Assembly (NCBI GenBank): GCA_031459625.1
Contig: JAVKIH010000031.1
Coordinates: 1-29,403 of the forward strand
Source: Candidatus Geohabitans tengchongensis
Lineage (GTDB): Bacteria; Sysuimicrobiota; Sysuimicrobiia; Sysuimicrobiales; Humicultoraceae
Direction: 5' to 3'
DNA length: 29,403 bases
Position 1 is the first letter of the stretch, and each line of letters begins with the position of its first letter. Below are positions 1,161 to 23,859 of the stretch, piece after piece. Below the pieces are notes generated by a model. It was given only the letters and a program-made list of their open reading frames with translations, searched no databases and was not told the DNA's origin. A program made the translations under genes and the position numbers.

Positions 1161-2874
<1,714 letters not shown>

Positions 2875-2882
<8 letters not shown>

Positions 2883-3429
2883 CGCCGCGCCCACCCCGCA
2901 GCCCGGAACGGCCGCCGCCACCGCCACGGCCAACGGCGGCGGGGGCGGGCCGCGGACGCTGGGCGTGCTCGTGGAGATGCGCGCGGCGGTGCTGGAGCGC
3001 GTGGCGGGGCTGCTGCGCCGCCGCGGCTACCCGGTGCGCGAGCTGGTCCTGGGGCGCACCGAGGAGCCGCACCTGGCCCGCCTCTTCGTCGTGCTGGAGG
3101 AGGGGGCGTCCGGCGAGCAGGTGGCCAAGAACCTGAACAAGCTCGTGGACGTGCGGCGGGTGGCCGACCTGAGCGCCCAGCCCACGGTGGTGCGGGAGCT
3201 GGCGCTCATCAAGGTGGACGTCACGCCGGGGACCCGCCAGGAGGTGCTGCTGGCCGCGCGGGTCTTCCGCGCCCGGGTCGTGGACATGGGGGAACGCACG
3301 CTCACCCTCGAGGTGAGCGGACGTCCCGAGAAGGTCGACGCCCTCTACCGCCTCCTGCGCCGCTACGGGGTGCGGGAGCTGGTCCGGTCGGGCCCGCTCG
3401 CCCTGGTGCGCGGGCCGCAGAGCACCTGA
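2875..3429 (+). CDS. ilvN: Acetolactate synthase small regulatory subunit (ACT domain)
   Basis: [21 protein letters not shown] and ELVRSG motifs. TTG start after AAGGAG; overlaps the ilvB stop. Confidence 0.9.
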
Positions 3430-3458
3430 GCACGGCTGACGGAGGGAGGGGAGCACGC

Positions 3459-4481
3459 ATGGCACGCATCTACTACGACGCCGACGCCAGCCTGGCGCCG
3501 CTGCGCGAGCGGCGCGTCGCCGTGATCGGCTACGGCAGCCAGGGGCACGCCCACGCGCTCAACCTGCGGGACAGCGGCATCGACGTGGTCGTGGGCCTCT
3601 ACCCCGGCAGCCGCTCCTGGGCCGCCGCCCAGGAGGCCGGGCTGGCGGTGCGGGAGACGGCCGAGGCGGCGCGCGAGGCCGACGTCGTCGTCCTCCTCAT
3701 CCCCGACGAGGTGCAGGGCCAGGTCTACCGGGAGGCCATCGCTCCGCACCTGCGCGCGGGACGGGCGCTGGCCGTGGCGCACGGCTTCAGCCTCCACTAC
3801 CACCAGGTGGTCCCGCCGCCGGACGTGGACGTCTTCATGGTCGCCCCCAAGGCCCCCGGCCACCTGATGCGCCGGCAGTTCGTGGCCGGGCAGAGCGTGC
3901 CCGCCCTGCTGGCCATCCACCAGGACGCCTCGGGCGGGGCCAGGGAGCTGGCGCTCGCCTACGCCCGGGGCGTGGGGTGCACGAAGGCGGGCGTGATCGA
4001 GACCACCGTGCGCGAGGAGGTGGAGAGCGACCTCTTCGGGGAGCAGGCCGTGCTCTGCGGCGGGGTGACCGAGCTCATCAAGGCCGGCTTCGACACCCTG
4101 GTCGAGGCCGGCTACCAGCCGGAGATCGCCTACTTCGAGTGCCTCAACGAGCTGAAGCTCATCGTCGACCTGCTCTACGAGGGGGGGCTCGCCTGGATGC
4201 GCCACTCCGTCAGCAACACCGCCGAGTACGGCGACCTGACCCGCGGCCGGCGCATCATCACCGAGGCCACCCGGGCGGAGATGCGCCGCCTGCTGCGCGA
4301 GATCCAGGACGGCACCTTCGCCCGCGAGTGGATCCTGGAGAACCAGGCCGGCCGGCCGGTGCTGGAGGCGCGGCGACGGGAGGAGGCGGCCCACCCCATC
4401 GAGGAGGTGGGGCGGCGGCTGCGCGCCATGATGCCCTGGCTCGCCACCCGCCCGGAGGTGGCCGCGGCCGGAGGACGCTGA
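3459..4481 (+). CDS. ilvC: Ketol-acid reductoisomerase
   Basis: [36 protein letters not shown]. Confidence 0.97.
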
Positions 4482-4482
4482 G

Positions 4483-5699
<1,217 letters not shown>

Positions 5700-5703
<4 letters not shown>

Positions 5704-6974
5704 CGCTGACCGAGCAGATCCTGGCGGCCCACGCGGGTGTCCCGCGGGTGACCCCCGGAGAGGTCATCGAGGTGCGGGCGGACTTCGTCTTCGCCAACGA
5801 CATCACTGCCCCGCTGGCCATCCGCGAGTTCGAGCGCATGGGGGCCCGGCGCGTCTTCGACCCCGAGCGGGTCGCCATCGTCTTCGACCACTACGTGCCG
5901 GCGAAGGACATCGCCTCGGCGGAGCAGTGCCGCATCGCCCGCGAGTTCGCCCGCCGCCACCACCTGCCGCACTTCTACGACGTGGGCCGATCCGGCATCG
6001 CCCACGTCCTGCTGGCCGAGGAGGGGTTCGTCGTTCCGGGAGACGTCTTCTTCGGCGCCGACTCCCACAGCTGCAACCACGGGGCGCTCGGCGCCTTCGC
6101 CACCGGGGTGGGCTCCTCCGACCTGGCCGCGGCCATGGCCCTGGGGCGCCTGTGGATGCGCGTGCCGGAGACCGTGCGCTACGAGTTCCGCGGCCGCCTG
6201 CGGCCCTGGGTGACCGGCAAGGACCTGATCCTGCACGTCATCGGCGACATCGGCGTGGACGGCGGGCGCTACGGGGCCATGGAGTTCGTGGGGGAGGCGT
6301 TGCAGGACCTGACCATGGACGAGCGCTTCTCCATCACCAACATGGCGGTCGAGGCGGGCGCCATGAACGGCATCATGGAGGCCGACGAGACGGTGCTGGC
6401 CTGGGTGCGCCCCCGCGCCCGCCGCCCCTGGACCGTCTACCGCAGCGACCCGGACGCGCGCGTGGCCGGGGTGCGCACCTACGACGTCTCGACGCTGGAG
6501 CCGGTGGTGGCGGTCCCGGCGTCGCCCGGCAACGTGGTCCCCGTGCGCGAGGTGGCGGGCGTGCGCGTGGACCAGGTCTTCATCGGCACCTGCACCAACG
6601 GACGGCTGGAGGACCTGCGCCTGGCCGCACGGGTGCTGGCCGGCCGCCGCGTCCACCCGGAGACGCGCCTGCTGGTCATCCCGGCCACCCCCGCGGTCTA
6701 CCGGCAGGCGCTCGCGGAGGGGCTGCTCCAGGCCTTCCTCGACGCCGGGGCGGCGGTGAGCACGTCCACGTGCGGGCCCTGCATCGGCGGCCACATGGGC
6801 GTGCTGGCGGACGGCGAGGTGTGCGTCTCCACCAGCAGCCGGAACTTCGTGGGCCGCATGGGCCACCGCCAGAGCCGCGTCTACCTGGCCAACCCGGCAG
6901 TGGCGGCGGCGGCGGCCGTGGCGGGGCGTCTGGTGCACCCCGCCGACGTCGTGCGCGACCTGGTCCCGGCCTGA
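5700..6974 (+). CDS. leuC: 3-isopropylmalate dehydratase large subunit (short, type-2 LeuC/HacA family)
   Basis: MTLTEQIL start overlapping the leuA stop (ATGA); DSHS, IGTCTNGR, CGPCIGG, RNFVGRMG. Confidence 0.94.
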
Positions 6975-6988
6975 GGGGGGCGCGGGTG

Positions 6989-7507
6989 ATGCAGCTGCGC
7001 GGACGCGCCCACCTCCTCGGCGACCACGTCGACACCGACGGCATCATCCCGGCGCGCTACCTGGTCACCACCGACCCCGGCGAGCTGGCCCGCCACTGCT
7101 TCGAGGACCTGGACCCCACGCTGCGGGAGCGCATCCGGCCGGGCGACATCCTGGTGGCCGGCCAGAACTTCGGCCAGGGGAGCAGCCGCGAGCACGCGCC
7201 CATCGCCATCAAGGGGCTCGGGGTCGGGGCGGTGGTGGCGCGCTCCTTCGCCGGGATCTTCCACCGCAACGCCTGCAACGTGGGCCTGCCGCTGGTGGAG
7301 TGCGCCGAGGCCCGCGACCGGGTGCGCGACGGGGACGAGGTGGAGGTCGACCTGACCGCCGGGTGGGTGGTGAACCACACCCGCGGCGAGCGCTACGCCA
7401 TCACCCCGCTGCCGCCGTTCATGCGGTACCTGCTGCAGTCGGGCGGGATCGTCGAGTATGTCCGGGCGGCGCTGGCCGCCGCGGAGGCGGGCGGCGCCGC
7501 CCCCTGA
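6989..7507 (+). CDS. leuD: 3-isopropylmalate dehydratase small subunit
   Basis: VDTDGIIPARYL, NFGQGSSREHA, SFAGIFHRN. Confidence 0.94.
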   Translation: MQLRGRAHLLGDHVDTDGIIPARYLVTTDPGELARHCFEDLDPTLRERIRPGDILVAGQNFGQGSSREHAPIAIKGLGVGAVVARSFAGIFHRNACNVGLPLVECAEARDRVRDGDEVEVDLTAGWVVNHTRGERYAITPLPPFMRYLLQSGGIVEYVRAALAAAEAGGAAP

Positions 7508-7565
7508 GCGGTGTGCCGATGATGGTGCGTGAACGACTGGGCGCCAAGGCAAAGGAGGTCATGGG

Positions 7566-7733
7566 ATGACGGACCGGGAGCAGGACGGGCAGACGCCACA
7601 CCGGCCCTCGGCGGAGGCAGAGGTGCCGCGGGCCAACGAGGAGCCGTGGGAGCGGGACCGGCGCGAGCGTGAACGCCGTGCTGCCGAGCGCGAGGCCGGC
7701 TGGGTGCGCGAGCGGATCCAGCAGCTCTTCTAG
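7566..7733 (+). CDS. Small charged hypothetical protein (55 aa)
   Basis: Strong RBS AAAGGAGGT (7551-7559). Reads MTDREQDGQTPHRPSAEAEVPRANEEPWERDRRERERRAAEREAGWVRERIQQLF*. Its stop abuts the leuB GTG. Confidence 0.6.
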   Translation: MTDREQDGQTPHRPSAEAEVPRANEEPWERDRRERERRAAEREAGWVRERIQQLF

Positions 7734-8873
7734 GTGACGCGGCAGGCGGACCCGATGCCGACCGGCGCCGGCGGCACGGGCGCGCGCCCGGACGGCTGGA
7801 CGATCGCCGTCCTGCCCGGCGACGGCATCGGGCCGGAGGTCACGGCCGAGGCGGTGCGCGTCCTGCTGGCGGCGGCCGAGCGCGCCGGCGTGCGCGTGCA
7901 CCTGCGCGAGGGGCGCATCGGCGGGGCGGCCCTCGACGCCACGGGCGACCCGCTGCCGGCCGAGACGCTGCGGCTGTGCCGGGAGGCCGACGCGGTCCTG
8001 CTCGGCGCCGTCGGCGGTCCGCGCTGGGACGGCCGGTCCCAGGAGCACCGGCCCGAGCGCGGCCTCCTGCGGCTGCGCCAGGCCCTCGGCGTCTACGCCA
8101 ACCTGCGGCCCGTGCGCCTGCCGCCGTCACTGGTGGACGTCTCGCCGCTGCGTCCCGAGCGCGTGGGCGGCACCGACCTGGTGATCGTCCGCGAGCTCGC
8201 CGGCGGCGCCTACTTCGGCGAGCCCCGCTGGTACCGCGACGAGGAAGCGGTGGACACGATACGCTACCGGGCGGAGGAAGTCCGCCGCGTGGCCCGCGTC
8301 GCCTTCGCCCTCGCCCGGGGGCGGCGGCGGGAGGTGGTCTCGGTGGACAAGGCGAATGTCCTGGCGACCTCGGTGTTGTGGCGGACCGTGGTGGAGGCGG
8401 AGGCCCGCGCCCATCCGGACGTGGCGGTGCGTCACCTGCTGGTGGACGCCTGCGCCCTGGAGCTCGTGCGGGCCCCGCGCCGGTTCGACGTGGTCCTGAC
8501 GGAGAACCTCTTCGGCGACATCCTGAGCGACGGGGCCGCCGGGCTGGTGGGCTCGCTCGGCCTGCTGCCGTCGGCCAGTGTCGGAGAGACGCATCCGTGG
8601 CTGTACGAGCCCGTGCACGGCTCCGCGCCTGACCTGGCGGGGCGGGGCGTGGCCAATCCGCTCGGGGCCATCCTCAGCGTGGCGATGATGCTGCGAACTT
8701 CGCTCGGTCATCCGGAGCTGGCGACGGCGGTGGAGCAGGCGGTCGACGAGGTCCTGCAGGCCGGCATCCGCACCCCGGACCTCGGCGGGACGGCCACGAC
8801 GGCCGCGGTGGGCGAGGCCGTCGCGTCCGCCCTCCAGGAAGGTCAACCGCTCGTCGGGGGCAGGCCCGCATGA
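7734..8873 (+). CDS. leuB: 3-isopropylmalate dehydrogenase
   Basis: [42 protein letters not shown]. Alternative in-frame ATG at 7755. Confidence 0.95.
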
Positions 8874-10558
8874 GCCCCCCGGCGGTCCCCCGTCCCCACA
8901 GCCGGCGGCTCCTCGACGGCCCCGAGCGCGCGCCCGCCCGAGCCTACTTCCGCGCCGTGGGCTACAGCGACGACGACCTCCGGCGGCCGCTCATCGGCGT
9001 GGCCCACGCCTGGATCGAGCTGATGCCCTGCAACATCCACCTGCGCGACCTGGCCGCCCACGTCAAGGCCGGCATCCGCGCCGCCGGCGGCACGCCGGTG
9101 GAGTTCAACACCATCGCCGTCTCCGACGGCATCGCCATGGGCACCCCGGGCATGCGCAGTTCGCTGGTCAGCCGCGAGGTGATCGCCGACTCGATCGAAC
9201 TCGTGGCCCGCGGGCACCTCCTCGACGGCCTGGTCGCCATCACGGGGTGCGACAAGACCATTCCCGGGGCGGTGATGGCCCTGGTGCGTCTCGACCTGCC
9301 CGGCCTGATGTTGTACGGCGGCTCCATCCAGCCCGGCCGCTACCAGGGGCGGGATGTGACGATCCAGGACGTCTTCGAGGCCGTGGGCGCCTACCAGGCC
9401 GGGCGCCTCTCGCTGGAGGAGCTGTACGCGCTCGAAGCGATCGCCTGTCCCGGGCCGGGGGCGTGTGGCGGGCAGTTCACCGCCAATACCATGGCCATGG
9501 CCTTCGGGATGCTGGGGATCGCCCCCATGGCGGCCTCCGACCTGCCGGCCACCCATCCGGAGAAGGCCGCGGCGGCGGCAGAGGTCGGCCGGCTGGCGGT
9601 GGAGCTGGTCCGGCGGGAGGTGGGCGCACGGCGCTTCGTCACGCGCGAAGCCCTCGAGAACGCCATCGCCGCCGTGGCCGCGAGCGGCGGGTCGACCAAC
9701 GCCGTCCTCCACCTGCTGGCTGTGGCCCACGAGGCCGGGGTCCCGCTCGACCTGGAGGACTTCGACCGCATCAGCGCGCGCACACCCCTGCTGGCCGACC
9801 TGAAGCCGGGCGGGCGGTTCGTCGCCACCGACCTCCACCGCGCCGGCGGCACCCGCCTGCTGGCGCGCCGGCTCCTCGACGCGGGGCTCCTCCACGGCGA
9901 CGCGCCCACGGTCACCGGCCGGACGATCGCCGAGGAGGCGGCGCTCGCCGAGGAGGCCCCCGGGCAGGAGGTCGTGCGCCCCCTGCACGCCCCGCTCCGC
10001 CCACACGGAGGGTTGGCCATCCTACGTGGCAGCCTGGCCCCGGAGGGGTGCGTGGTGAAGCTGGCCGGTCACGAGCGCCTCGTCCACACCGGCCCAGTCC
10101 GCGTCTTCGATCGCGAGGAGGAGGCGTTCGCGGCGGTCCGCGAGCGGCGGATCCACCCGGGCGACGTCGTGGTGATCCGCTACGAGGGGCCGGTGGGCGG
10201 ACCAGGGATGCGGGAGATGCTCGCCGTCACCGGGGCCCTCGTCGGAGCGGGATTGGGCGAGTCCGTGGCGCTCATCACGGACGGGCGTTTCTCCGGCGCC
10301 ACCCATGGGTTGATGGTGGGGCACGTGGCCCCTGAGGCCGCCGTGGGCGGCCCCCTGGCCGCGCTGCGCGACGGTGACGAGATCACCATCGACGTCCCGG
10401 CCCGGCGTCTGGACGTGGCCCTGCCGCCCGAGGAGCTGGCTGCCCGCCTGCGCGCCTGGCCCGGCCCGCCTGCAGCCTCCCGGGATGGGGCAGGGGTGCT
10501 GGCCAAGTACGCCCGGCTCGTCTCCTCGGCGTCGAAGGGTGCGGTGACCACGGCCTGA
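8870..10558 (+). CDS. ilvD: Dihydroxy-acid dehydratase
   Basis: [35 protein letters not shown]. Confidence 0.96.
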
Positions 10559-10709
10559 GGATACCGAACGCGACTCGCCCCGGGGCGAGCGTGACGCACG
10601 ACCGGCGTCGGAGCGCCCCGGCCCGGCGTTATCGCGGCGTGAACGGCGCTCTGCCCGAGGCGCGGCGTCCCGGGCCGTGGGACCGGCGCACGGGCCGGGC
10701 ACGAGTCCA

Positions 10710-10738
10710 TTGACGGAGGCCCGGTTCGCCCTCATACT
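10710..10738 (+). promoter_or_regulatory. Sigma70-type promoter
   Basis: TTGACG-17 bp-CATACT, 6 nt before the SAM riboswitch P1. Confidence 0.75.
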
Positions 10739-10744
10739 GGACCT

Positions 10745-10880
10745 CGCATCAGGAGCGGTCCCGACGCGGACCCGGCAACCTGGGACGGACACCCAAGGTG
10801 CCTGCCTGCCGCCCGGCTGAGCCGGCGGCGGGGATGCGGTCTCGACAGGCCCCGGCCTGGACGAGGCAACCGTGTCCGAT
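10745..10880 (+). ncRNA. SAM riboswitch, SAM-I/IV variant
   Basis: P1 CGCATC(10745)/GATGCG(10833); ATCAGGAG junction; P3 GGCAACCTGGGACGGACACCCAAGGTGC. The loop CGGACAC pairs with 3' GTGTCCG (10872-10878) as pseudoknot PK-2. P2 is short and has no kink-turn. Confidence 0.88.
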
Positions 10881-10884
10881 GGCA

Positions 10885-10922
10885 GCCCGCGCTCCTGGTG
10901 GAGAGCGGGCGTTGATGTTTTC
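10885..10922 (+). terminator. Probable terminator of the SAM riboswitch platform
   Basis: GCCCGCGCTCC-TGGT-GGAGAGCGGGC hairpin followed by an interrupted T tract GTTGATGTTTT. Confidence 0.55.
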
Positions 10923-10959
10923 TGGGGGTCCGCAGACGGCGTTCCGAGAGGAGGGAGAG

Positions 10960-12258
10960 ATGGCCCGGCACCTGCGCTGTCGCCTCTGTGGCACGACCTA
11001 CCCGCTCGAGCCCCGCTACGTCTGTGAGGAGTGCCTCGGACCGCTCGACGCCGTGAGCGTGGTCGAGGGCGGGCCCGCCGGGAGCGGGAGCGGGGAGGCG
11101 GAGGCCCTCCGCCGCACCATCAGCGCGGGACCGCCCACCCTGTGGCGCTACGCGCCGTTCCTGCCGGTCGACCCCGACCCCGCGAGCGACCTGGGCGCCG
11201 GCTGGACGCCGCTGCTGCCCGCCCCGCGCCTGGGCGCCGCGCTGGGGCTGCGGCGCCTCTACCTGAAGAACGACGCCGCGAACCCCACCTGGTCGTTCAA
11301 GGACCGCGTCGTCGCCGTGGGGATCGCGGCGGCGCGCCAGTTCGGCTTCACCGTGGCGGCGTGCGCCTCCACCGGCAACCTGGCCAACGCCGTGGCCGCC
11401 TGCGCCGCCCGGGCCGGCCTGCGGGCCGTCGTCTTCGTGCCGCGCGGGCTCGAGGCGGAGAAGCTCGTCCTCTCGGCGGTGTACGGCGCGACGATCGTCG
11501 AGGTCGACGGCACCTACGACGACGTCAACCGCCTCTGCACCCAGGTGGCCGACGAGTACCGCTGGGCCTTCCTCAACGTGAACCTCCGCCCCTACTACGC
11601 CGACGGGGCCAAGACCCTGGGCTACGAAGTGGCGGAGCAGCTCGGCTGGCGGCTGCCCGACCACGTGGTCGTGCCCATGGCCTCGGGCAACCTGCTGGTG
11701 AAGATCGCGCGCGCCTTCGCGGAGCTGGCCGAGGTCGGCCTGGCGGCGGCGCGACCGGTGCAGGTCCACGGCGCCCAGCCTGCGGGCTGCGCGCCCATTG
11801 CCGCGGCCTTCGCCGCCGGGGCGGCGCAGGTGGCGCCGGTGCGGCCGCAGACCGCGGTGCGCTCGCTCGCCATCGGGAGCCCGGCCGACGGCCTCTTCGC
11901 CCTCCGGGCGATCCGCGACAGCGGCGGCCGGGCAGTGGCGGTGACGGATGAGGAGGCCGCCGACGCCGTCGCCCTGCTGGCGCGCACCGAGGGGCTCTTC
12001 ACCGAGAGCGCCGGCGGCGTCACCGTGGCGGCGCTGCGGCGCCTGGCGCAGGCGGGCGCCGTCGACCCCGAGGCGACGGTGGTGGTCTACCTCACGGGGA
12101 TGGGGCTGAAGACGCGGGAGAACCTGGTCCCGCTCCCCGGGCCCGTCGCCATCCGGCCCACGCTGGCGGCGTTCGAGGCGGCGGTGTTGCCGCGCCTGGA
12201 GGGCGTGGCTGCGGCCGCTGCGGGTGCCGGCGCCGCTGCGGCAGGAGGTGAGGGCTGA
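10960..12258 (+). CDS. Threonine-synthase-family PLP enzyme, probable O-phosphohomoserine sulfhydrylase
   Basis: N-terminal CxxC..CxxC ribbon, NPTWSFKDR (PLP lysine), CASTGNLA, NVNLRPYY, GAKTLGYE. ATG 10960 follows GAGGAGGGAG. Confidence 0.88.
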   Translation: MARHLRCRLCGTTYPLEPRYVCEECLGPLDAVSVVEGGPAGSGSGEAEALRRTISAGPPTLWRYAPFLPVDPDPASDLGAGWTPLLPAPRLGAALGLRRLYLKNDAANPTWSFKDRVVAVGIAAARQFGFTVAACASTGNLANAVAACAARAGLRAVVFVPRGLEAEKLVLSAVYGATIVEVDGTYDDVNRLCTQVADEYRWAFLNVNLRPYYADGAKTLGYEVAEQLGWRLPDHVVVPMASGNLLVKIARAFAELAEVGLAAARPVQVHGAQPAGCAPIAAAFAAGAAQVAPVRPQTAVRSLAIGSPADGLFALRAIRDSGGRAVAVTDEEAADAVALLARTEGLFTESAGGVTVAALRRLAQAGAVDPEATVVVYLTGMGLKTRENLVPLPGPVAIRPTLAAFEAAVLPRLEGVAAAAAGAGAAAAGGEG

Positions 12259-12542
12259 TGCCCCGGGTGCGCATCCCCGCCCCGCTCCGCCAGCACGCCG
12301 ACGGTCAGCGCGAGGTGGCGGTGGCGGGTGCCACGCTGGGCGAGGTCCTGCGCGCCCTGACCGAGCGCTGGCCCGGGCTGCGCCCGCGGCTGCTCGACGG
12401 CGACGGCGGGCTCCACCCGTTCGTGAGCGTCTTCGTGGACGGTGAGGACGTGCGCCTGCTCCAAGGACTCCAGACCCCGTTGCGGGCTGACGCCGAGGTG
12501 ACGATCCTGCCGAGCATGGCCGGCGGCGCCGAGCGGCCGTGA
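12258..12542 (+). CDS. MoaD/ThiS/CysO-family ubiquitin-like sulfur carrier protein
   Basis: VRIPAPLR..FVSVFVDGEDVR..LPSMAGG-AERP; coupled to the upstream gene through TGATG. Confidence 0.9.
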   Translation: MPRVRIPAPLRQHADGQREVAVAGATLGEVLRALTERWPGLRPRLLDGDGGLHPFVSVFVDGEDVRLLQGLQTPLRADAEVTILPSMAGGAERP

Positions 12543-13004: not shown

Positions 13005-13487
13005 CTACCGGGCCCTCGCGCGTTGACGCCCCCCGGCCGGCACCTGCCCGGCCGGCTGCTCGGGCGCGGTGCCCAACCGGTGCTCGTAGCTGAGCGCCCC
13101 GCCGAGCCATCCCGCGTAGCCCAGTCCCAGGACCCCGATGAGCGAGAGGATGTACCCGGTCGGCGTCTGTGGGGTACGCCAGCGCAGGTACAGGTTCACG
13201 GCGTAGAGGGCGACCACGACCAGGTTGACGGCCATGTGGCGGGTCGCCGTGCCCCGCACCTCCGGTCCCATGGGGATGGTGAGGTAGTCGACGAACCCGA
13301 AGAGGGCGGCCAGCAGGCCGCCCACCAGCCCGAAGGCAATGAGCCAGGTCCCCATGGCCGTCCAGAAGTCGGAGCCGCCCAGCAGGGAGAAGATGTCGGC
13401 AACCAAGGAGCCGACGAAGAAAGCGATGGGAAACGGCACGAGCATCGGGTGAATCGGGTGACGCCACAGCGTGGCCTTGCCCTGCAT
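13005..13487 (-). CDS. DUF2231-family membrane protein
   Basis: HPIHPMLVPFPIA, GFVDY, H..VN and GWLGGALSY motifs; about 4 TM segments; RBS GGAGGG. Confidence 0.85.
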   Translation of the reverse strand: MQGKATLWRHPIHPMLVPFPIAFFVGSLVADIFSLLGGSDFWTAMGTWLIAFGLVGGLLAALFGFVDYLTIPMGPEVRGTATRHMAVNLVVVALYAVNLYLRWRTPQTPTGYILSLIGVLGLGYAGWLGGALSYEHRLGTAPEQPAGQVPAGGRQRARAR

Positions 13488-13599
13488 GATCTGACCCTCC
13501 TCTGGTCCTCCCCTGAACCTTTTCCCTTGCTCACCCCCATGCTTGCTGTCCTGTGTCGCGATCCTCAAGTCAGTCTCGGCCGTCAGACAAGCCTGTCTT

Positions 13600-13625
13600 G
13601 TTTCGCGGACACCGCGCGGTGGTAA
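13600..13625 (+). promoter_or_regulatory. Possible SigB/SigF-type stress promoter
   Basis: GTTT-N16-TGGTAA, one mismatch to GTTT-N15-17-GGGWAW. Confidence 0.4.
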
Positions 13626-13647
13626 CCCCCACTCGGAGGTGATGACC

Positions 13648-14151
13648 ATGGTGCACCATCAGCACGACGTGATCCGCCGCTACCTGCAGGACGCCCTGGC
13701 GGCCGAGCAGAGCTTCGAGAACCAGCTCAAGCAGTTCGCCGAGGATAGCCAGCAGCCGGAGCTGCAGCAGCTCTTCCGGCAGCACGCCGACGAGACCCGC
13801 TGGCAGGCGGAGCGACTCAAGGGGCGGCTGGAGGTCCTGGGCGGTGCGCCCTCCGGCGTGAAGGGGTTCATGGCCAACCTCTTCAGCCTGGGCCCCAAGG
13901 TGGCCCAGATGGGACACGACCCCTCCGAGAAGGGGGTGCAGAACCTCATCGCCGCCATCGCCGTCGAGCACAGCGAGCTGGCCATGTACGAGGCCCTGGC
14001 CCAGGTGGCCGCAGCGGCGGGTGACCTGGAGACCGAGCAGCTCGCCCGGGACATCCAGCAGCAGGAGGCGCGGGCGGCCGAGATGCTCTGGCCCTACGTC
14101 GGGCGGACGGCCCGGGAGGCCTTCCAGCAGGTGGCGATGACGTCAGGCTAG
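13648..14151 (+). CDS. Ferritin-like DUF892 (YciE/YciF-like) protein
   Basis: YLQDALAAE, H..ET..Q.ERL, EHSELAMYEAL; RBS GGAGGT. Confidence 0.85.
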   Translation: MVHHQHDVIRRYLQDALAAEQSFENQLKQFAEDSQQPELQQLFRQHADETRWQAERLKGRLEVLGGAPSGVKGFMANLFSLGPKVAQMGHDPSEKGVQNLIAAIAVEHSELAMYEALAQVAAAAGDLETEQLARDIQQQEARAAEMLWPYVGRTAREAFQQVAMTSG

Positions 14152-14199
14152 CGCGTGGGCTGCGCCGCCGGGACGGGGCGCGTGGTCTACGCCGGCCAC

Positions 14200-14238
14200 G
14201 GCAGGGGACGGGGACCGTGCCTGGGCTCGTCCCCTGCC
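14200..14238. terminator. GC-rich inverted repeat, possible terminator
   Basis: GGCAGGGGACG / CGTCCCCTGCC perfect 11-bp arms; no U tract. Confidence 0.45.
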
Positions 14239-14284
14239 CCGTCCATCCCCCATAGAGCTGTCGAGGAGGCTACGATAGTGCCCG

Positions 14285-14821
14285 GTGGCCTCCATGACTG
14301 CCCTGTCGCCCACGCACGCGACTCCCCCGGCGGACGCCCCCGCGCAGGGGGGGGTCGCCAGGCCGCGGCGGCGACAGCGTCGTATCGCCCTGGCCGCCCT
14401 CAGCGTGGCCGGCTTCCTCGACGCCCTCTACATGCTGGCCTACCACGAGGGGCTCATCGACCGGCTGGTCTGTCCGTTCTTCGGGGAGGGGTGCGAGCGG
14501 GTAGGGCGCTCCCCTCACGCGGTCCACTTCGGGCTCCCCAATGCCCTCGTCGGCGCGCTGGGCTACGCGGTCATGACCACACTGGCCGTGGCGCTGGGAG
14601 ACCGCCCGGCGCGGCAGCGCCCTTACCGGGTGCTGGCCCTCGGCGCCACAGCCGGAGCGGCGGCGGCCGCCAGTGCCGTCCTCACCTACGAGCAGCCGGC
14701 CCGCGTGGGTGCCTGGTGCTTCTGGTGTCTGCTCTCCGCCGCGCTCAACGCTGCCATCCTCCCGCTGGCCCTGGCCGAGGTGCGCGAGGCCCGGTCGGCC
14801 CGCCATGCCCTCTACCCGTAG
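14285..14821 (+). CDS. Vitamin K epoxide reductase (VKOR) family protein
   Basis: Loop cysteines CPFFGEGC..V..S, GLPNALVG and active-site WCFWC. Alternative start ATG 14294. Confidence 0.88.
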   Translation: MASMTALSPTHATPPADAPAQGGVARPRRRQRRIALAALSVAGFLDALYMLAYHEGLIDRLVCPFFGEGCERVGRSPHAVHFGLPNALVGALGYAVMTTLAVALGDRPARQRPYRVLALGATAGAAAAASAVLTYEQPARVGAWCFWCLLSAALNAAILPLALAEVREARSARHALYP

Positions 14822-14828
14822 GGCGGCC

Positions 14829-15536
14829 GTGGACCGGGACGAGGTGCGTCGGATCCTGGGCGCCTGCGAGGCGGCGCTGGAGGAAGGACCGGTGGACCTG
14901 CGGCGCCTGGGCTTCTGGCGGGCGGTCGAGGCGGTCAAGCGCCATCCCGAATGGCTGGACGAATTCGGTCGGCGCATTGCCGTGATCGACCGCCGGGCCT
15001 TCCAGCGCCAGGTCTGGATCCTCCTTCCCCTGGAGAGAGGGCTCCCGCTCCTCGCAATGGGGGCCGGGGTGGGCGCGGGGCTCGTGGTGGGCGCTCTGGA
15101 GGCACCGGCTCCGGCGCGAGGCATCCTCCTCCTGGCCGGGGCCGGAGTGCTGCTCGGCACGACGCACGACCTGGCCCACTACCTGGCGGGGCGGGCGGCC
15201 GGGATGACCTTTACAGATCTCTACGTCCTCAAGCCGCTGCGTCCTCAGCCCGGGATCAAGGTCGACTACGAGAGCTACCTGCGCGCGCCTGCGGCGGCGC
15301 GTGCCTGGATGCATGCCTCGGGGGCCCTGGTCACGAAGCTCATCCCCTTCCTCCTGCTCCCGGTGGCCCTGGCCGCCCGCGCCCCCCGCTGGACCGTCCT
15401 GGTCCTCCTGGCGCTGGGGGTGGTCCAGATCCTCACCGACCTGCTCTTCTCCACGCGCTCGTCCGACTGGAAGCGCGTCCGGCGGGAGCTCCGCCACGCT
15501 CGGCGCCAGGCCCGCCGACGAGAACCCCCTCCATAG
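14829..15536 (+). CDS. Membrane protein with HDxxH motif (M50/zincin-like)
   Basis: About 4 TM segments; TTHDLAHYLAG, RAWMHASG and FST.SSDW motifs. Start uncertain (GTG 14829 or ATG 14805). Confidence 0.7.
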   Translation: MDRDEVRRILGACEAALEEGPVDLRRLGFWRAVEAVKRHPEWLDEFGRRIAVIDRRAFQRQVWILLPLERGLPLLAMGAGVGAGLVVGALEAPAPARGILLLAGAGVLLGTTHDLAHYLAGRAAGMTFTDLYVLKPLRPQPGIKVDYESYLRAPAAARAWMHASGALVTKLIPFLLLPVALAARAPRWTVLVLLALGVVQILTDLLFSTRSSDWKRVRRELRHARRQARRREPPP

Positions 15537-15614
15537 CAGCCCGGAGCAGCGCCAGCCCGCCACCAGGAGCGCCGTCCGCAGCAGCCCCGGTGGCATCCCC
15601 ACCGGTAGGCTCTG

Positions 15615-15652
15615 GTTTCTGTCGGCGTGAGCGCGGGTAAGGGTGCTAGAGT
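15615..15652 (+). promoter_or_regulatory. Candidate dual sodA promoter (SigB/SigF-type plus extended -10)
   Basis: GTTT-N16-GGGTAA (15615-15640) and TGcTAGAGT (15644-15652). Confidence 0.5.
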
Positions 15653-15713
15653 AGAGACGAGCCCATACCAGCCACGGCCTGCCGTGGCCATCACGCCACG
15701 AGGAGGTGAGAGC

Positions 15714-16344
<631 letters not shown>

Positions 16345-16349
<5 letters not shown>

Positions 16350-16455: not shown

Positions 16456-19314
16456 TCAGGTCGTGGCCCCGGACGGATCGGGCGAGCTCACACCCGGCGG
16501 CTGTCCAGCCTGACGACCGCCGACGGCGTAGGCCACGACGTTGTCCAGCGGCAGCGTCCGACCGTGCTCCCAGGTCTCCTGAAACCGGTGCTCGCCCAGG
16601 GCGTCCCGCACGGTGGCCACGTGCTCCGGGTAGGTGTCCCGGATGAAGGGCGGCGGCGGGATGCCGAGCCTCTCGCGCAACGCCTCCCCGGCGCCCAGCA
16701 GGACCGCCGCCCGTTCCGCCTGCCCCTCGCGCGCGGCCACCACCCCGAGCCCCGTGAGCGCCGTGGCCATCCCCCGGCGCTCCCCGAGCTGGTGACGCAG
16801 GCGCAGGCTCTCGGCGAAGAGTGCCGCCGCCCGTCCCCGCTCGTCCTCGTGCCACGCGATGATGGCCAGGTTGCTGAGCGCGAAGGCCATCCCGTAGGTG
16901 TCGCCGATCGCCCGGGTGAGGGCCAGGGTCTCCTCCTGCACGCGCCGGGCCTCGGCGTAGTCCCCCAGCTCGGTGATGACGAGCCCCAGGTTGGTGAGGA
17001 CGAGCGCGGTGAGGGCGCGGTCGCCGTTGACCCGGGCGAGCCGGACCGCCTCCTCCAGCAGGCCTCGCGCCTCCTGGTAGCGGCGGCGCCCGCGGGCCAC
17101 CAGCCCCAGCACGCTCAGCGCGCTCGCCCGCGGCAAGGCGTCGCCCACCTGCCGGCTGAGGGCCAGGCTCTCTTCGCCCAGCTGGGCCGCAGCGTCGTAC
17201 CGCTCGATCCGACAGGCCTCGAACCCCAGGATGTTCAGACAGTGCACCGCACTGCGCGTGTCGCCGAGCTGCCGGGCCAGCTCGAGGCTCTCCTGAGCCA
17301 GCTGCACGCCCCGGGCGAAGTCCCCCTGGAAGAAGGCGAAGAAGGCGGCCCCGTTGAGGACGGGCACGCGTACCTCGGCGGAGGCCTCGCCGGCGCAGTC
17401 GAGGAGGACGTCCAGCCAGGCCCGCCCCTCGCGCCAGTGGCCGCGGATCTCCCAGTACCGCCAGAGCTGGCCCGCCAGGCGCAGCCCTGCGTCGACGGCC
17501 CCGCTCTCCAGGCTCCAGGCCAGGGCCGTGCGCAGGTTGTCGTGGTCCGCCGCCAGGCGGTCGAGCCAGCCTTCCTGCCCCGGCCGGCCCAGGGCCGGGT
17601 CCGCGAGCCTGGCCAGCCCCAGGTAGTGGTCGCGGTGACGGTCGCGCAGGTGCTGCTCCTCCCCGGCAGCGACGAGGTGCTCCTGGGCGTAGAGCCGCAC
17701 GGTCTCCAGGAGGGTGTAGCGGCCCCGCTCCTCGTCGAAGAGGACGAAGGACTTCTCCACCAGGCGGCTGAGCACGTCGAGCACGTCGGCGGCGGCCAGG
17801 CGGCCTCCCGGTCCGTCCCCCGCAGCCGGCGTGCCGTCGCCGGTCCCGGACGCCACGCCTGCGGGGTCGTCGGCAGTCACCGCCTCCGCCGCCTCCACGT
17901 CGAAACCGCCGGCGAAGACCGCGAGTCGCCGTAGCAGTGTGCGCTCCGCTTCAGCGAGCAGGTCGTAGCTCCAGTCCAGCGCCGCCCGCAGCATCTGGTG
18001 GCGGGTCGGGGCGCCGCGGTCCCCGCGGGTGAGGAGGCGAAACCGGTCGTCCAGCCGCGAGGCCACCTGCTCCAGCGAGAGGGCCCCCAGCCGCGCGGCG
18101 GCCAGCTCGATGGCCAGCGGGATGCCGTCGAGCCGCCGGCAGATCTGCAGGACCACCGGTGCGGTGGCCTCGGTCAGGCGGAACCGCGGCTGGCTCAGCG
18201 CCGCCCGGTCGAGGAAGAGGCGCACCGCCTCTGACTGCTCGGCAGCCGTGAGCGTGGGTGTGGCCTGCGGGTCCGGTAGCGCGAGCGGCCGCACCCGGTA
18301 GACGACCTCTCCGGGGACGCCGAGGGGCTCCTGGCTCGTCGCCAGGACCCGGAGCTCCGGGCAGCGCTCCAGGAGGTGGCGGGCCGCCTCGGCGCACCCG
18401 GCCAGCAGGTGCTCGCAGTTGTCGACGACCAGCAGCAGGCGCCTGGCGGCCAGCGCATCCGCCAGCGTGAGGGCGAGCGGCCTGTGCACCTCTTCGTGGA
18501 CGCCGACGGCTGCGGCGATGCGCTGCGGGATGAGGGATTCGTCGCGCAGCGCCGCCAGTTCCACCCACCACACCCCGTCCGGGAAGCGGCGCAGGAGGTC
18601 CGAGGCCACCTGCAGGGCGAGACGCGTCTTGCCCCCGCCGCCCGGGCCGGTGAGGGTGACGAGCCGCGTCCGCTGCAGCAGCGCGGCGATCTCCCCGAGC
18701 TCGCGCTCACGCCCGACAAAGGTGGTGAGGGGACGCGGCAGGTTGTTGGGCAGGGTGTCCAGGGTGCGCAGCGGCGGGAAGTCGGCGGGGAGCCCCGGGA
18801 CGAGGAGTTGCCAGATGCGCTCGGGGTGGGCCAGCCCGGCCAGGCGGTGGAGCCCCAGGTCCCGCAGCTCGACGCCCGGCGGCAGGTCCCCGGCCACCAG
18901 GGCGCGCGTGGCGTCGGAGAGGACGACCTGGCCGCCGTGCCCGGCCGCGACGAGCCGCGCCGCCAGGTTCAGGGGGCGGCCGGCGTAATCCCCCCCGCGC
19001 AGTTCTGCACTGCCGGTGTGCACCGCCATGCGCACGCGCAGCCCTTCCGGCAGCGGCCAGGGCTCTCGGGCGAGGGCCTCCTGCGCCGCCGTTGCGGCGG
19101 CCACCGCGTCCGCCGCGTTGCCGAAGGCCGCGTAGAGCGCATCGCCCACGTGCTTGAAGACGTGGCCGCCCCGCTCCTCCAGCACCTGGCGGAGCAGCGC
19201 GTCGTGCCGGGTCAGCGCCAGGGTCATCGCCTGGTGGTGCTGCTCCCACAGGGGCGTGCTGCCTTCGATGTCGGTGAAGAGGAAGGTCAGGGTCTGGCGC
19301 GACGGGGCAGCCAT
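16456..19314 (-). CDS. Class III adenylate cyclase - STAND (NB-ARC-like) ATPase - TPR protein
   Basis: FTDIEGST, FKHVGDA and DYAG..LNLAARL (cyclase); NNLP..LTTFVGR, GPGGGGKT, LLVVDNCEH and LDGIPLAIELAA (STAND); C-terminal TPR-like repeats. Confidence 0.92.
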   Translation of the reverse strand: MAAPSRQTLTFLFTDIEGSTPLWEQHHQAMTLALTRHDALLRQVLEERGGHVFKHVGDALYAAFGNAADAVAAATAAQEALAREPWPLPEGLRVRMAVHTGSAELRGGDYAGRPLNLAARLVAAGHGGQVVLSDATRALVAGDLPPGVELRDLGLHRLAGLAHPERIWQLLVPGLPADFPPLRTLDTLPNNLPRPLTTFVGRERELGEIAALLQRTRLVTLTGPGGGGKTRLALQVASDLLRRFPDGVWWVELAALRDESLIPQRIAAAVGVHEEVHRPLALTLADALAARRLLLVVDNCEHLLAGCAEAARHLLERCPELRVLATSQEPLGVPGEVVYRVRPLALPDPQATPTLTAAEQSEAVRLFLDRAALSQPRFRLTEATAPVVLQICRRLDGIPLAIELAAARLGALSLEQVASRLDDRFRLLTRGDRGAPTRHQMLRAALDWSYDLLAEAERTLLRRLAVFAGGFDVEAAEAVTADDPAGVASGTGDGTPAAGDGPGGRLAAADVLDVLSRLVEKSFVLFDEERGRYTLLETVRLYAQEHLVAAGEEQHLRDRHRDHYLGLARLADPALGRPGQEGWLDRLAADHDNLRTALAWSLESGAVDAGLRLAGQLWRYWEIRGHWREGRAWLDVLLDCAGEASAEVRVPVLNGAAFFAFFQGDFARGVQLAQESLELARQLGDTRSAVHCLNILGFEACRIERYDAAAQLGEESLALSRQVGDALPRASALSVLGLVARGRRRYQEARGLLEEAVRLARVNGDRALTALVLTNLGLVITELGDYAEARRVQEETLALTRAIGDTYGMAFALSNLAIIAWHEDERGRAAALFAESLRLRHQLGERRGMATALTGLGVVAAREGQAERAAVLLGAGEALRERLGIPPPPFIRDTYPEHVATVRDALGEHRFQETWEHGRTLPLDNVVAYAVGGRQAGQPPGVSSPDPSGATT

Positions 19315-19527
19315 ACCCGTAGCGTACCCCCCGCCGCGACCGTTGGCCATCCGGCGTTGCGCGCCGGCAGGGTGCGGTCGCGGCTGCGAGGGTGACCACC
19401 GGCCCGCGCCGTCGACGGCGGGCCTGTGCCCCGCACCGCCCGGCGGGCAGCCCACCAGGAAGCCGCCCTCCGGAGCCGGAAGCCTTCACGTATGGCAGAT
19501 CGTCCGGCCACGAAGATCGTCACGGCC

Positions 19528-20830: not shown

Positions 20831-21745
20831 ATGAGCGCCCGGGCCCGCGGCTACCTGGCGGTAACGGCGTCGGCCGTCCTGTGGGGGCTGAGCGGGGTGG
20901 TGGCCAAGGCCCTCTTCAACCAGGCGGTGGCGCCGAGCGCGCTCATGGCGGTGCGGCTGACGCTGGCGTTCGCCGTCGGGTTCCTCCTGGTCGCGCTCAC
21001 CCGCCCGGCGGCCCTGCGCCAGGCCTGGCGCCACCGCCTCCCCATCGCCGCGGTCGGCCTCGCCCAGCTGGCCGGGTCGTACACCTACTACGTCACCGTC
21101 AGCCTGACCACCGTGGCCACGGCGATCTTCCTGGCCTACCTGGCTCCGGTCCTGCTGGTCCTCTGGGAGCGGGTGGTCGAGCGCCGGCCGCTCACGCCGT
21201 TGCGCGCCCTGGCGGTGGCGGTGGCCGTGAGTGGCTCCTACCTGCTGGTCGTCTCGCCGCAGGGCCTGCAGACGACGCCAGCCGGTTTGCTGTGGGGCTT
21301 GGGCGCCGCCGTCACCTTCGCGGCGCACAGCCTGCTGGCGCGGCGCCAGGTGGTGCGGGTGGATCCGTGGGCAGCGCTGGTGCTGGCGCTGGGGGTAGGT
21401 GCGCTGGCGATGGCCCCGGTCGCGCCGCCGTGGCAGACGTTCACGGCGGGCTACGCGCCGGTGCAGTGGCTGCTCTTCACCCACCTGGCGGTCCTGGCCA
21501 CGCTCGTGCCGTTCGGTCTGTACCTGGCCGCGCTGCGGCACCTGACCGCGAGCGAGGCCGCGCTCACCGCCATGCTGGAGCCGCTGGTGGCGGCCGGAGC
21601 GGCCTCCGTCCTCCTGGACGAGGTCCTCACCACGCGCCAGGTCCTGGGAGGCGCCCTGGTCCTGCTGGCGACGGGCCTGATCCAGTTTCGCCCGGAGCAG
21701 GGTCGGCAGCCGACGGCCTTCCAGGCGTCACCTCCCGCCGGGTGA
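20831..21745 (+). CDS. EamA/DMT family transporter
   Basis: About 10 TM segments in two repeats; LWG.SG, YLAPV, MLEPLVA. Confidence 0.9.
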   Translation: MSARARGYLAVTASAVLWGLSGVVAKALFNQAVAPSALMAVRLTLAFAVGFLLVALTRPAALRQAWRHRLPIAAVGLAQLAGSYTYYVTVSLTTVATAIFLAYLAPVLLVLWERVVERRPLTPLRALAVAVAVSGSYLLVVSPQGLQTTPAGLLWGLGAAVTFAAHSLLARRQVVRVDPWAALVLALGVGALAMAPVAPPWQTFTAGYAPVQWLLFTHLAVLATLVPFGLYLAALRHLTASEAALTAMLEPLVAAGAASVLLDEVLTTRQVLGGALVLLATGLIQFRPEQGRQPTAFQASPPAG

Positions 21746-22265
21746 ACGCGGTCATCCCGCCGGCCGGCGGCCCCGTGTCCCGGCGGGCGGCACGGAGGCG
21801 GTGGAACACGTCGAGGGGGCCCACGGCTGCCGCCGGCTGGCGGGGCGCCTCCGGCGGAGGAGTCACCCCCTGCTCGTCGCACCGCGCTTCCAGTGCCCGC
21901 ACCGCGGCCGCCAGCCGCGCCACCTCTGCCTCTACGGCGGGAAGGGATCGCCGGTACTGCGCGTTGGCCGCCTCGAGGGCTGTGACGTTCATGCGCAGCG
22001 TCCGCACGCTCTCGTCTGCCAGGTAGGCCCGATGGCGCAGGAGGGCGAGCTCGGCCCTGGCGGCGCCCCAGGCGTTCACCGTCTCTTCGGCCGTGGGGTC
22101 CCCCGGGCCTGGGGCGTGGAGGGCCGCACCGTAAGCCAGCAGGATCCGGACCCCATCCTGCAGGTTCCAGCCGCGCTCAGCCACGAAGGCCTCCAGCCGC
22201 TCCAGGAGGGCGCCGGGGATGGCCACGGCAAGGCGGGCCAGGGCAGGGAAGACCAGGTTGGTCAC
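21627..22265 (-). CDS. Uncharacterised protein: predicted ribbon-helix-helix N-terminus plus coiled coil (paralog B)
   Basis: GTG 22265 overlaps the upstream stop (GTGA). RLAVAIPGALLERLEAFVAERGWNLQDGVRILL fits an RHH pattern; heptad region follows. A low-complexity tail overlaps the EamA 3' end. Confidence 0.7.
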   Translation of the reverse strand: MTNLVFPALARLAVAIPGALLERLEAFVAERGWNLQDGVRILLAYGAALHAPGPGDPTAEETVNAWGAARAELALLRHRAYLADESVRTLRMNVTALEAANAQYRRSLPAVEAEVARLAAAVRALEARCDEQGVTPPPEAPRQPAAAVGPLDVFHRLRAARRDTGPPAGGMTAFTRREVTPGRPSAADPAPGETGSGPSPAGPGRLPGPGAW

Positions 22266-22783
22266 GGCATCGCCCACCGCCGCCACAGCCGTTGCAGGCG
22301 TGCGGCCAGGCGTGCCGCCAGCGAGCACGGGTGGGCCCGCTCCGGAGCCTGACCCTCGAGCACGCTGTGCAGCTGGTCCCGCCGCCGCTGCAGCCGGGGG
22401 ATCTCCGCACGCAACTGGAGCATCCTGGCCTTAAAGTGCGCGTTCTCCTCCTCCAGCGCCGCTACCCTGGCGCTGAGGCGCTGTACCTCCACTTCGCTGG
22501 CGATGGTGCGGGCCCGCATCGACACCACCAGCGCCTCCGCTTCCCGTCGCCTCAGGATCTGCAGGCGACGGGCCCCCGATTCTCCCACCGATCCGCCCGC
22601 TCCCCCGACGATTGCTGCCAGTGTGCTCCACTCCGCCTCGTCCCGGATGTACTGCTCCAGGCCCTCCCCGAGCAGCGCTCCCAGTCGGTGGGGAAGCTCG
22701 GCTCCCTCTCCACCGGCCGCGCGCACGACGTCGCGGGCGTCGTACGCCAGGAGCTCGACCTCGACCGTCCTTGGGGGTGTCAT
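22262..22783 (-). CDS. Uncharacterised protein: RHH-like N-terminus plus coiled coil (paralog A)
   Basis: ATG 22783 lies just after the riboswitch terminator; 173 aa; heptads VQRLSARVAALEEENAHFKARMLQLRAEIPRL; aligns with paralog B. RBS is weak. Confidence 0.7.
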   Translation of the reverse strand: MTPPRTVEVELLAYDARDVVRAAGGEGAELPHRLGALLGEGLEQYIRDEAEWSTLAAIVGGAGGSVGESGARRLQILRRREAEALVVSMRARTIASEVEVQRLSARVAALEEENAHFKARMLQLRAEIPRLQRRRDQLHSVLEGQAPERAHPCSLAARLAARLQRLWRRWAMP

Positions 22784-22795
22784 GGTCTGCCCATC

Positions 22796-22832
22796 AAAAA
22801 AGCCCCCACCGACCCAGCGGTCAGTAGGAGCT
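22796..22832 (-). terminator. Intrinsic terminator of the fluoride riboswitch (ON switch)
   Basis: Minus strand AGCTCCTACTGACC-GCTG-GGTCGGTGGGGGCT-TTTTT; the left arm overlaps the aptamer pseudoknot strand. Confidence 0.88.
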
Positions 22833-22879
22833 ATCAGCCCGCGGGGCATCCCCCCGGGCACATGGCGAGCTCCATCGCC
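22824..22879 (-). ncRNA. Fluoride (crcB-motif) riboswitch
   Basis: Minus strand GGCGATGGAGCTCGCC-ATGT-GCCCG..CGGGC-TGATAGCTCCTAC: P1 GGCG/CGCC, pseudoknot GGAGCT/AGCTCC, conserved GAUG, CUGAU and CUAC. Confidence 0.88.
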
Positions 22880-22900
22880 GGAGCTATGCGCTTCGACCCC

Positions 22901-22929
22901 AGTATAGGCTGCCACCCTACAGTCCTCAA
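22901..22929 (-). promoter_or_regulatory. Sigma70-type promoter for the fluoride riboswitch unit
   Basis: Minus strand TTGAGG-17 bp-TATACT, 21 nt upstream of the aptamer. Confidence 0.8.
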
Positions 22930-23025
22930 CCTGGAGACCGGGGAGCACGGCTCGGATGCGATGGCCAGCGTGCTGGTCGAGTGGCGCCACCCCCGGGCGT
23001 AGATAGTGCGCGGTGGCCTGCCCCG

Positions 23026-23859
23026 TTACCCGCGGCACCGTCGCGGCGACCGCGTCCGAGCGGACCGCGTCGCAGGCTGCGGGCTGCCAGACCGTGGTCC
23101 CGCGGGAGGCGGCAGGGGGAAGCCCAACCGGGCCAGGACCGCCCGCAGCCGCTGCGGGTGGTTGGTCATCACCCCGTCGACCCCCATGGCCACCACGCGG
23201 GCCATCTCCTCCGGCTCGTCGACGACCCAGGTCTCTACCTCCAGCCCGCCCGCGTGCGCCGCCTCCACCACGTCCGCCGACAGCAGCGACCAGTGCGGGT
23301 GGAGCACGCTGGCAGCGGCGTCTCGGGCCAGCCGCAGGGGGTCCACCGGCCGGGCCACGTACAGCACCGCGGTGCGGACCTGGGGCAGGTGGTCCCGTAC
23401 CTCCAGCAGCAGCGGGTGGTCGAAGGAGGAGACCGTGACCGCGGGGTGCCCGGACTGGCGGATCGCCTCGGCCACGCGCCGCGCCAGGCCTGGAGCGGGC
23501 CGCGGCGGGCGCTTGATCTCGGCGATCACGCGTACCGGGCGCAGCAGCGCCAGCGCCTCGGCCAGCGTCGGGATGCGCTCGCCGGCAAACGCTCCGGCGA
23601 ACCACCGTCCCGCATCCAGGCGCCGCAGCGCCCACAGGGGGAGGGCACCCACCGGACCCCGGCCGTCCGTGGTCCGCTCCAGGAGGGGGTCGTGGATAAC
23701 CACGGGCACCCCGTCGCTGGAGAGGTGCACGTCCAGCTCCACGCCGTCCACCCCGGTGGCCAGCGCCCGGCGAAAGGCCGCCGCGGTGTTCTCCGGCGCT
23801 TCCGCGGACGCGCCCCGGTGGGCGATGATCCGCGGCCCGCGTCGGGCCACGGGGCTCAC
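23026..23859 (-). CDS. ugpQ: Glycerophosphodiester phosphodiesterase
   Basis: [47 protein letters not shown] start overlaps the ugpE stop. Confidence 0.9.

Follow-up and report, generated by a model that had tools for sequence, protein, structure and literature searches.

The minus strand of contig JAVKIH010000031.1 (29,403 nucleotides, assembly GCA_031459625.1, Candidatus Geohabitans tengchongensis), the whole of which was analyzed and is referred to below as the window, contains a predicted fluoride riboswitch followed by two overlapping open reading frames (ORFs) of an uncatalogued family, ORF1 and ORF2. We assign a probability of about 0.8 to the reading that this unit encodes a heterodimer which is switched by fluoride and belongs to a wider regulon. 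Every part named in the first-pass annotation was recovered, from the promoter through the fluoride-type aptamer and the overlapping terminator to the two ORFs, coupled by a GTGA overlap, and the convergent EamA gene (Table 1), and its reading of two uncharacterized genes behind a fluoride switch was borne out, the two being a conserved, uncatalogued module among the genomes of the order. ORF2 was found in 26 of these 94 genomes and ORF1 in 27, the additional genome (G028) having an ORF1 that looks split and nothing that matches ORF2. In each of the 26 carriers ORF2 is immediately preceded by ORF1, and in 25 of them a fluoride switch is located on the same strand 30–200 nucleotides upstream (23–48 bits, E ≤ 0.001); the switch of the 26th carrier is weak (22 bits, E 0.044). 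Fluoride switches were likewise found in all six of the metagenome loci that were scanned with Rfam, from 14 that were fetched. The 26 carriers span 11 genera, and kin among them are not independent; close homologs carry the label Armatimonadota. Some ORFs were missed by the gene caller (e.g., ORF1 in L047, L058, and L064) and the carrier counts rest on other searches, with named loci, most of which duplicate carrier-genome loci, counted once. Scanning directly for ORF1 loci gave no match, and the locus scan included a weak Burkholderia match (L016).

The genes 3' of ORF2 consist of a same-strand DUF6062 gene in 15 of the 26 carriers, a directly following major facilitator superfamily (MFS) gene in six, a convergent DUF6062 gene in three, a second switch with MutS_V genes in one, and the convergent EamA gene in the window genome. 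Because these downstream genes vary, the switch, ORF1, and ORF2 constitute the constant core. The EamA gene follows ORF2 in no other carrier, and is found there in L107, a locus with 87–95% nucleotide identity to the window and an identical gene order. An exporter gene deleted from between switch and ORFs was also considered, and none is seen at that place in any of the 26 carriers. ORF1 and ORF2 stand alone as a two-gene unit in the window genome, G002, G047, G050, G083, and L109. In comparison with L107, the ratio of nonsynonymous to synonymous substitution rates (dN/dS) is 0.31 for ORF1 and 0.20 for residues 1–130 of ORF2, and these ratios indicate that purifying selection acts on both members of the two-gene arrangement. 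The convergent EamA gene had been described as closing the unit and is present as described, but the last ~40 amino acids of ORF2, which overlap it by 119 nucleotides, are not conserved. Homologs of ORF2 are 132–174 amino acids long and the tail of the window copy is frame-shifted relative to L107, and from these comparisons the tail is regarded as a lineage-specific extension.

Searching with the RF01734 covariance model, the check that had been proposed for the crcB motif, gave a match at 22888–22818 (31.7 bits, E 5.5e-7, model positions 1–64) but one that misses the gathering score of 34, and a gathering-level Rfam scan of the window returned nothing. By the cut-off the window aptamer is not a member of RF01734; it is filed as an ortholog, presumed to work alike, of leaders that do reach it (e.g., G001 with 37.9 bits and G083 with 48.1 bits), and the low score is attributed to its long second stem. 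Across 26 orthologous leaders, P1 is 95% paired and the six-pair pseudoknot 100% paired, with two-sided changes at three P1 or pseudoknot pairs, and 11 terminator pairs are 97.6% paired, the maximum in slid registers being 60.5%; pairing as high was reached in 0/500 shuffles in either case, a result that is not a probability as the leaders are related sequences. The promoter aligns with a TTGACA-17-TAGACT promoter in G001, and most orthologous leaders have the −35 word TTGAC at most 100 nucleotides upstream (GTCAA, its reverse complement, in 22 of 25, with a shuffled maximum of 19). Position 1 of the pseudoknot is U-A in 20 of the 26 leaders, including that of the window, U-G in four, and C-G in two. 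A wobble at this position is reported to widen the switching range, and a thermophile switch with G-C at position 1 showed read-through at 65 °C of 80% without and 94% with fluoride (PMC11077080). The arrangement in the window, from the EamA gene to the promoter, was confirmed by a 21-kilobase contig from another study (run X5) with no indel listed in the ORFs, and it is therefore not an assembly artifact. Farther upstream, ~140–150 nucleotides within 22943–23089, including the end of a GDPD frame, are lacking in the strains of runs X5 and X9; this junction thus varies among strains.

Neither ORF looks like a transporter or an enzyme, as had been noted from the translations: Pfam and NCBIfam gave no match above cut-off for ORF1 or ORF2, only sub-threshold coiled-coil matches, and the first ESM Atlas matches (0.87 and 0.89, under 0.9) serve as leads only. 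Core profiles of ORF2 (n = 27) and ORF1 (n = 26) align over 104 columns with an HH probability of 94.5 (E 8.1e-8), and by this profile comparison the two are distant paralogs. The monomer models each comprise two short helices and one long helix (predicted local distance difference test, pLDDT, 83.9 and 87.6). For the ORF2 model, the top Foldseek rows are all ribbon-helix-helix (RHH) DNA binders (ORF56, CopG, StnY, and Arc) with E-values of 0.24 and above, none of them significant, and RelB matches ORF2 profile positions 6–51 at E 0.006. Foldseek gave no match for the ORF1 monomer, VIA-align returned generic long-helix matches only (best Z 6.3), and Pfam RHH families matched neither window protein and only weakly a few of the 27 family members. 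Profile matches to a DARPin and of ankyrin length were taken as noise.

When the two chains were modeled together, the heterodimer, the one combination of these chains that was modeled, scored 0.80 in three runs, compared with 0.01 for the best of three controls, and the runs share at least 98% of their contacts with a partner pLDDT of at least 89. The mark for the complex score was reached by 116 of 157 solved pairs and 2 of 215 mismatched ones. In the model the chains meet at their N-terminal strands, at their second helices, and along a parallel coiled coil, with residue 5 of ORF1 facing residue 12 of ORF2 and residues 36–40 facing 37–41, as in RHH-type dimers formed through antiparallel strands and second helices. 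The products thus modeled probably form one two-chain protein with an RHH-like head and a parallel coiled coil, which fits the scaffold that the first-pass annotation had offered as one of its options. In one genome (G091) ORF1 and ORF2 are joined in a single 287-amino acid frame (L063:9972-10835), and the chains complement each other in strand charge (Spearman −0.62, confounded by clade). Invariant residues cluster at the start of the coil (R68, E70, L74, R75, and R77 in ORF2; R78, E79, and R88 in ORF1; core numbering, add 2); the arginine motifs of the two chains fall in register in the model, and a matching motif is found in distant homologs. A type II toxin-antitoxin pair was ruled out, the ORFs being paralogous and neither matching a toxin family. 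As side observations, ORF1 and ORF2 of L061 are in frame and 9 nucleotides apart, a layout from which one stop-codon loss explains the L063 fusion, and representative P0053 (302 amino acids) matches both profiles.

The cluster found in relatives contains, in addition to the core, DUF6062, the MFS gene, a cation/proton antiporter of the Na_H_Exchanger family, a universal stress protein (USP), and two MutS_V-only ATPases; a second switch is usually present as well. Judged by this linkage, the ORF pair is one module of a regulon made up of these genes and not a lone relay; the two-gene response module that had been proposed is seen as such in the window but usually is linked to a transporter elsewhere. 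Of 25 relatives, 21 have the MFS gene, which forms one BLAST cluster, within the locus fetched for the core, and three more have it on another contig; it was not seen in the fetched locus of G083, for which a genome-wide search was not made. Assignments of DUF6062 were confirmed with Pfam, as our own profile gave false matches in GC-rich frames. The parts of the regulon are scattered in the window genome, where, as had been expected of the targets, the other fluoride-switched genes lie apart from the pair. A second switch on contig C44 (43.3 bits, L007:4554-8955) heads the antiporter and the MutS_V pair, the two ATPase genes being adjacent with overlapping stop and start; the USP found at the equivalent place in relatives is missing. 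The MFS ortholog is encoded on contig C19 (L081:4272-5564) with no switch detected. L107 has an additional 1.6 kilobases between window positions 23015 and 22936 that hold a 54-bit switch together with an MFS gene, their transcription leading away from ORF1, such that a fluoride-switched MFS gene, an 89% match to the C19 copy, stands back-to-back with the ORF1-ORF2 promoter. Upstream of the C19 MFS gene itself, the leader is replaced by lower-GC DNA (54–56% versus about 76%) near the contig end.

The window assembly, which is 94% complete, contains no match to CLC or CrcB (PF00654 and PF02537), nor does either ORF, and no DUF6062 or TPR gene was found in it. The earlier statement that a fluoride exporter is lacking therefore stands for these two families, but has to be set beside the second fluoride switch that heads a cation/proton antiporter. 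CrcB was found in 6 of the 94 genomes of the order, three of them carriers (a tally that includes G024), and CLC in 5 of 25 relatives, the type of CLC not being assigned; 20 of the 26 carriers, several with incomplete assemblies, show neither. The pair is probably a component of some alternative means of fluoride tolerance. Other fluoride switches were noted in the order. Genomes of family f4 without the ORF pair (L071 and L073–L077) have up to six each, which head MutS_V pairs and MFS genes as well as a MoxR ATPase-DUF58-DUF4129 operon and a hydrogenase-4-like membrane operon. Two large MutS_V genes of this family, those of L071 and L076, are ordinary MutS2, and some f4 genomes encode DUF6062 proteins of about 500 amino acids. 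A chromate-transporter-family gene (L013:10297-11481) is divergent from a second fluoride switch.

Outside the order, a profile search of 1.84 billion representatives resulted in 82 matches, 23 of them at E ≤ 1e-10, with many of the weaker matches sharing the head and the neck motif. Two subsets of these matches gave 19 loci, of which six have a fluoride switch (two of them weak), and distant homologs are found behind fluoride switches in Chloroflexota and Caldanaerobacter. Apart from nine Chloroflexia loci discussed below, DUF6062 was identified by Pfam in eight of the other ten loci (one below cut-off) and in a ninth by our own profile, and the neighbors include enolase, pyrophosphatase, DUF190-CBS, HEAT, and MFS proteins. 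The neighborhood analysis that the first-pass annotation had called for thus links the pair to the fluoride switch throughout the order, and places some distant homologs near enolase or pyrophosphatase. In Caldanaerobacter subterraneus, a cultured host of the module, a 50.7-bit switch is found with DUF6062, a single homolog of 110 amino acids (AAM25089.1), a HEAT protein, and an MFS gene. CrcB and CLC were found in none of the five distant genomes checked, whose completeness is not stated, and one checked genome has a further homolog copy behind a second switch. Two recurrent neighbors were also noted: a gene for ~140 amino acids that comes first after the fluoride switch at two loci of Chloroflexota (L102:3030-3455, with no Pfam match, and L121:4410-4900), and a zinc-ribbon and HEAT-repeat protein near the family and DUF6062 (L097:6327-6752, L085:3370-3882, and L121:2824-3282).

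Taken from the known switch class, the expected course is that transcription stops at the terminator when fluoride is absent and that fluoride stabilizes the pseudoknot, upon which RNA polymerase would read into ORF1 and ORF2. Translational coupling would then supply equal amounts of the two paralogous chains, which are modeled to pair through a parallel coiled coil of about 50 residues and an RHH-like head in which they intertwine. The head would join the chains and set their register, with no part in reading DNA. Conservation suggests the arginine cluster at the start of the coiled coil as the working surface. By gene linkage, the dimer would act as an adaptor that binds further regulon proteins induced by fluoride, its likeliest partner being the DUF6062 zinc-type protein where present and otherwise the MFS or antiporter protein; we put this adaptor role forward tentatively, at slightly under even odds. 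The pair would in this way be one module of a fluoride-tolerance regulon that lacks CrcB and CLC in most carriers. The described fluoride exporters of bacteria belong to just two families (PMC11139923, PMC11777429). That bacteria without Fluc or CLC-F possess an undescribed third system for fluoride tolerance, built of switch-controlled modules in which an RHH fold, diverted from its use in DNA recognition, clamps a heterodimeric coiled-coil adaptor and the MFS or antiporter protein is the exporter, is a more speculative proposal that we consider unlikely.

Several points weigh against the heterodimeric adaptor. Its role as adaptor is drawn from gene neighborhood, and DUF6062 is absent from 8 of the 26 carriers and so cannot be required as a partner. 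Resemblance to solved RHH dimers and coiled coils may account for part of the complex score, single-copy homologs exist (L097), and the fusion of the two ORFs is known from a single genome, where a stop codon could simply have been lost. By analogy with the characterized switches, the lack of a wobble pair at pseudoknot position 1 means that ORF1 and ORF2 may be leaky, being partly on without fluoride. Lastly, the nine Chloroflexia loci (L086–L094) have a lone copy with neither a switch nor any other link to fluoride, the copy following an RlmN-like gene in eight of them (Pfam check for one), and this branch may have another role.

The first-pass annotation had named as its first option a fluoride-induced DNA-binding regulator that relays the signal to unlinked genes, which here would mean an RHH transcription factor formed by the heterodimer. 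The Foldseek rows, the RelB match, and the scattered Pfam RHH matches all point in this direction, 22 of 27 members have Thr or Arg at position 9 of the ORF2 strand, the conserved arginines could touch the DNA backbone, and ordinary regulators could be what the Chloroflexia singletons are. In RHH regulators, DNA is read by a two-stranded sheet that is basic or polar. The dimer head, however, is net negative in 25 of 26 pairs, as are the heads of distant homologs (20/20 and 14/14 measured), and the ORF1 strand often has Glu at outward positions. Residues on the outward side of the strands are variable, with charges that add up to about zero, the sheet having a net charge of 0 in 12 of the 26 pairs, −1 in seven, +1 in four, +2 in two, and −2 in one, with acidic ORF1 strands accompanying basic ORF2 strands; neither a conserved basic or polar DNA-facing sheet nor a basic head was found. 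In the 100 nucleotides upstream of 25 leaders, the only regions searched, there is no common 5–7-mer beyond the −35 box and no shared palindrome. The other genes of the regulon mostly have a fluoride switch of their own, so a relay is not needed. DNA binding is thus doubtful, and we consider the regulator unlikely.

Two further explanations were considered. In one, the dimer by itself binds anions or metal-fluoride-phosphate species through the arginine cluster and acts as a buffer or sensor, for which speak four invariant or near-invariant arginines that meet in register at the neck, and the stand-alone two-gene units. Structure comparisons found no pocket or known anion-binding fold, and arginines of the coiled coil are equally explained by partner binding; this explanation appears improbable. 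The unit might alternatively be the leftover of a longer operon from which DUF6062 was lost and the MFS gene moved, the pair persisting as a leaky passenger with little role. The missing DUF6062 and TPR genes, the C19 MFS gene without a switch, the frame-shifted ORF2 tail, and the sub-threshold aptamer without a wobble pair would all agree with decay, but the low dN/dS values were obtained against L107, itself without DUF6062 at this place, the pairs of switch and terminator are intact, and the pair is kept without DUF6062 in seven other genomes. We consider a leftover improbable.

The unit resembles other transcriptional fluoride riboswitch operons in having an aptamer with P1 and pseudoknot, a terminator that overlaps the 3' strand, and presumed ON logic (PMC2864571, PMC11077080). 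It differs in controlling an uncatalogued pair of paralogs, in the long second stem, low score, and wobble-less pseudoknot of its aptamer, and in the scarcity of CrcB and CLC among carriers. The switch class and several associations are already in print (PMC2864571, PMC11139923, PMC5533749, PMC11777429), and the neighbors found in relatives agree with them, namely those with mutS (PMC2864571), with Na+/H+ antiporters, pyrophosphatase, and enolase (PMC11139923), and with uspA, encoding a USP (PMC5533749). A literature search that covered few subscription papers found none on DUF6062, on fluoride riboswitches together with Armatimonadota, or on this operon, and a single general review for ribbon-helix-helix; the supplements of the 2010 survey or the 2012 riboswitch survey may list these genes.

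With RHH proteins (CopG, Arc, ORF56, NikR, and RelB) the pair may share a predicted strand-helix-helix head that dimerizes via the strand and the second helix, but it is a modeled heterodimer of paralogs with an acidic head and a long parallel coiled coil that bears the conserved residues, and neither an operator nor a toxin partner family was detected for it. The overlapping MutS_V-only ATPase genes behind the second switch of the window genome resemble the tandem MutS4A/MutS4B pairs, which are reported as unstudied in function (PMC2190696); the MutS_V pair is unlinked to ORF1-ORF2 here, and its MutS4 membership is putative. Several frequent neighbors of fluoride riboswitches have no tested role, and the pair adds a defined two-protein module present in three phyla, with a bearing on fluoride tolerance in thermophiles and on the engineering of fluoride-tolerant defluorinating strains.

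Table 1. Positions of the features of the fluoride-switched unit and its surroundings in the window
Feature	Position	Strand	Remark
Sigma-70-type promoter, TTGAGG-17-TATACT	22901..22929	−	1 found versus 0.0 expected in shuffles
Fluoride (crcB-motif) aptamer	22818..22888	−	long second stem; 6-pair, all-Watson-Crick pseudoknot; RF01734 match
Intrinsic terminator	22796..22832	−	14-pair stem (22832–22801) with T run next; takes up the 3' pseudoknot strand
ORF1	22262..22783	−	173 amino acids; RHH-like head and long coiled coil (predicted); uncatalogued family
ORF2	21627..22265	−	212 amino acids; ORF1 paralog; GTG start overlapping ORF1 stop
Non-conserved ORF2 tail	21627..21760	−	119 nucleotides into the antisense strand of EamA
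Junction where the close relative L107 has 1.6 kilobases more	22937..23014		
EamA-family transporter gene (PF00892)	20831..21745	+	convergent; closes the unit, outside it

The remainder of the window contains three other groups of genes that were noted in passing. A branched-chain amino acid biosynthesis operon, then threonine-synthase-like and small MoaD/ThiS-like genes, occupies 966–12542 (labels from reading the translations). Positions 13005–16349 hold a stress cluster that encodes a DUF2231 membrane protein, a DUF892 ferritin-like protein, a VKOR-family protein, and an Fe/Mn superoxide dismutase. On the minus strand, 16456–19455 encodes an adenylate/guanylate cyclase-NB-ARC-TPR protein of the STAND type, which adjoins a PhoD phosphatase.

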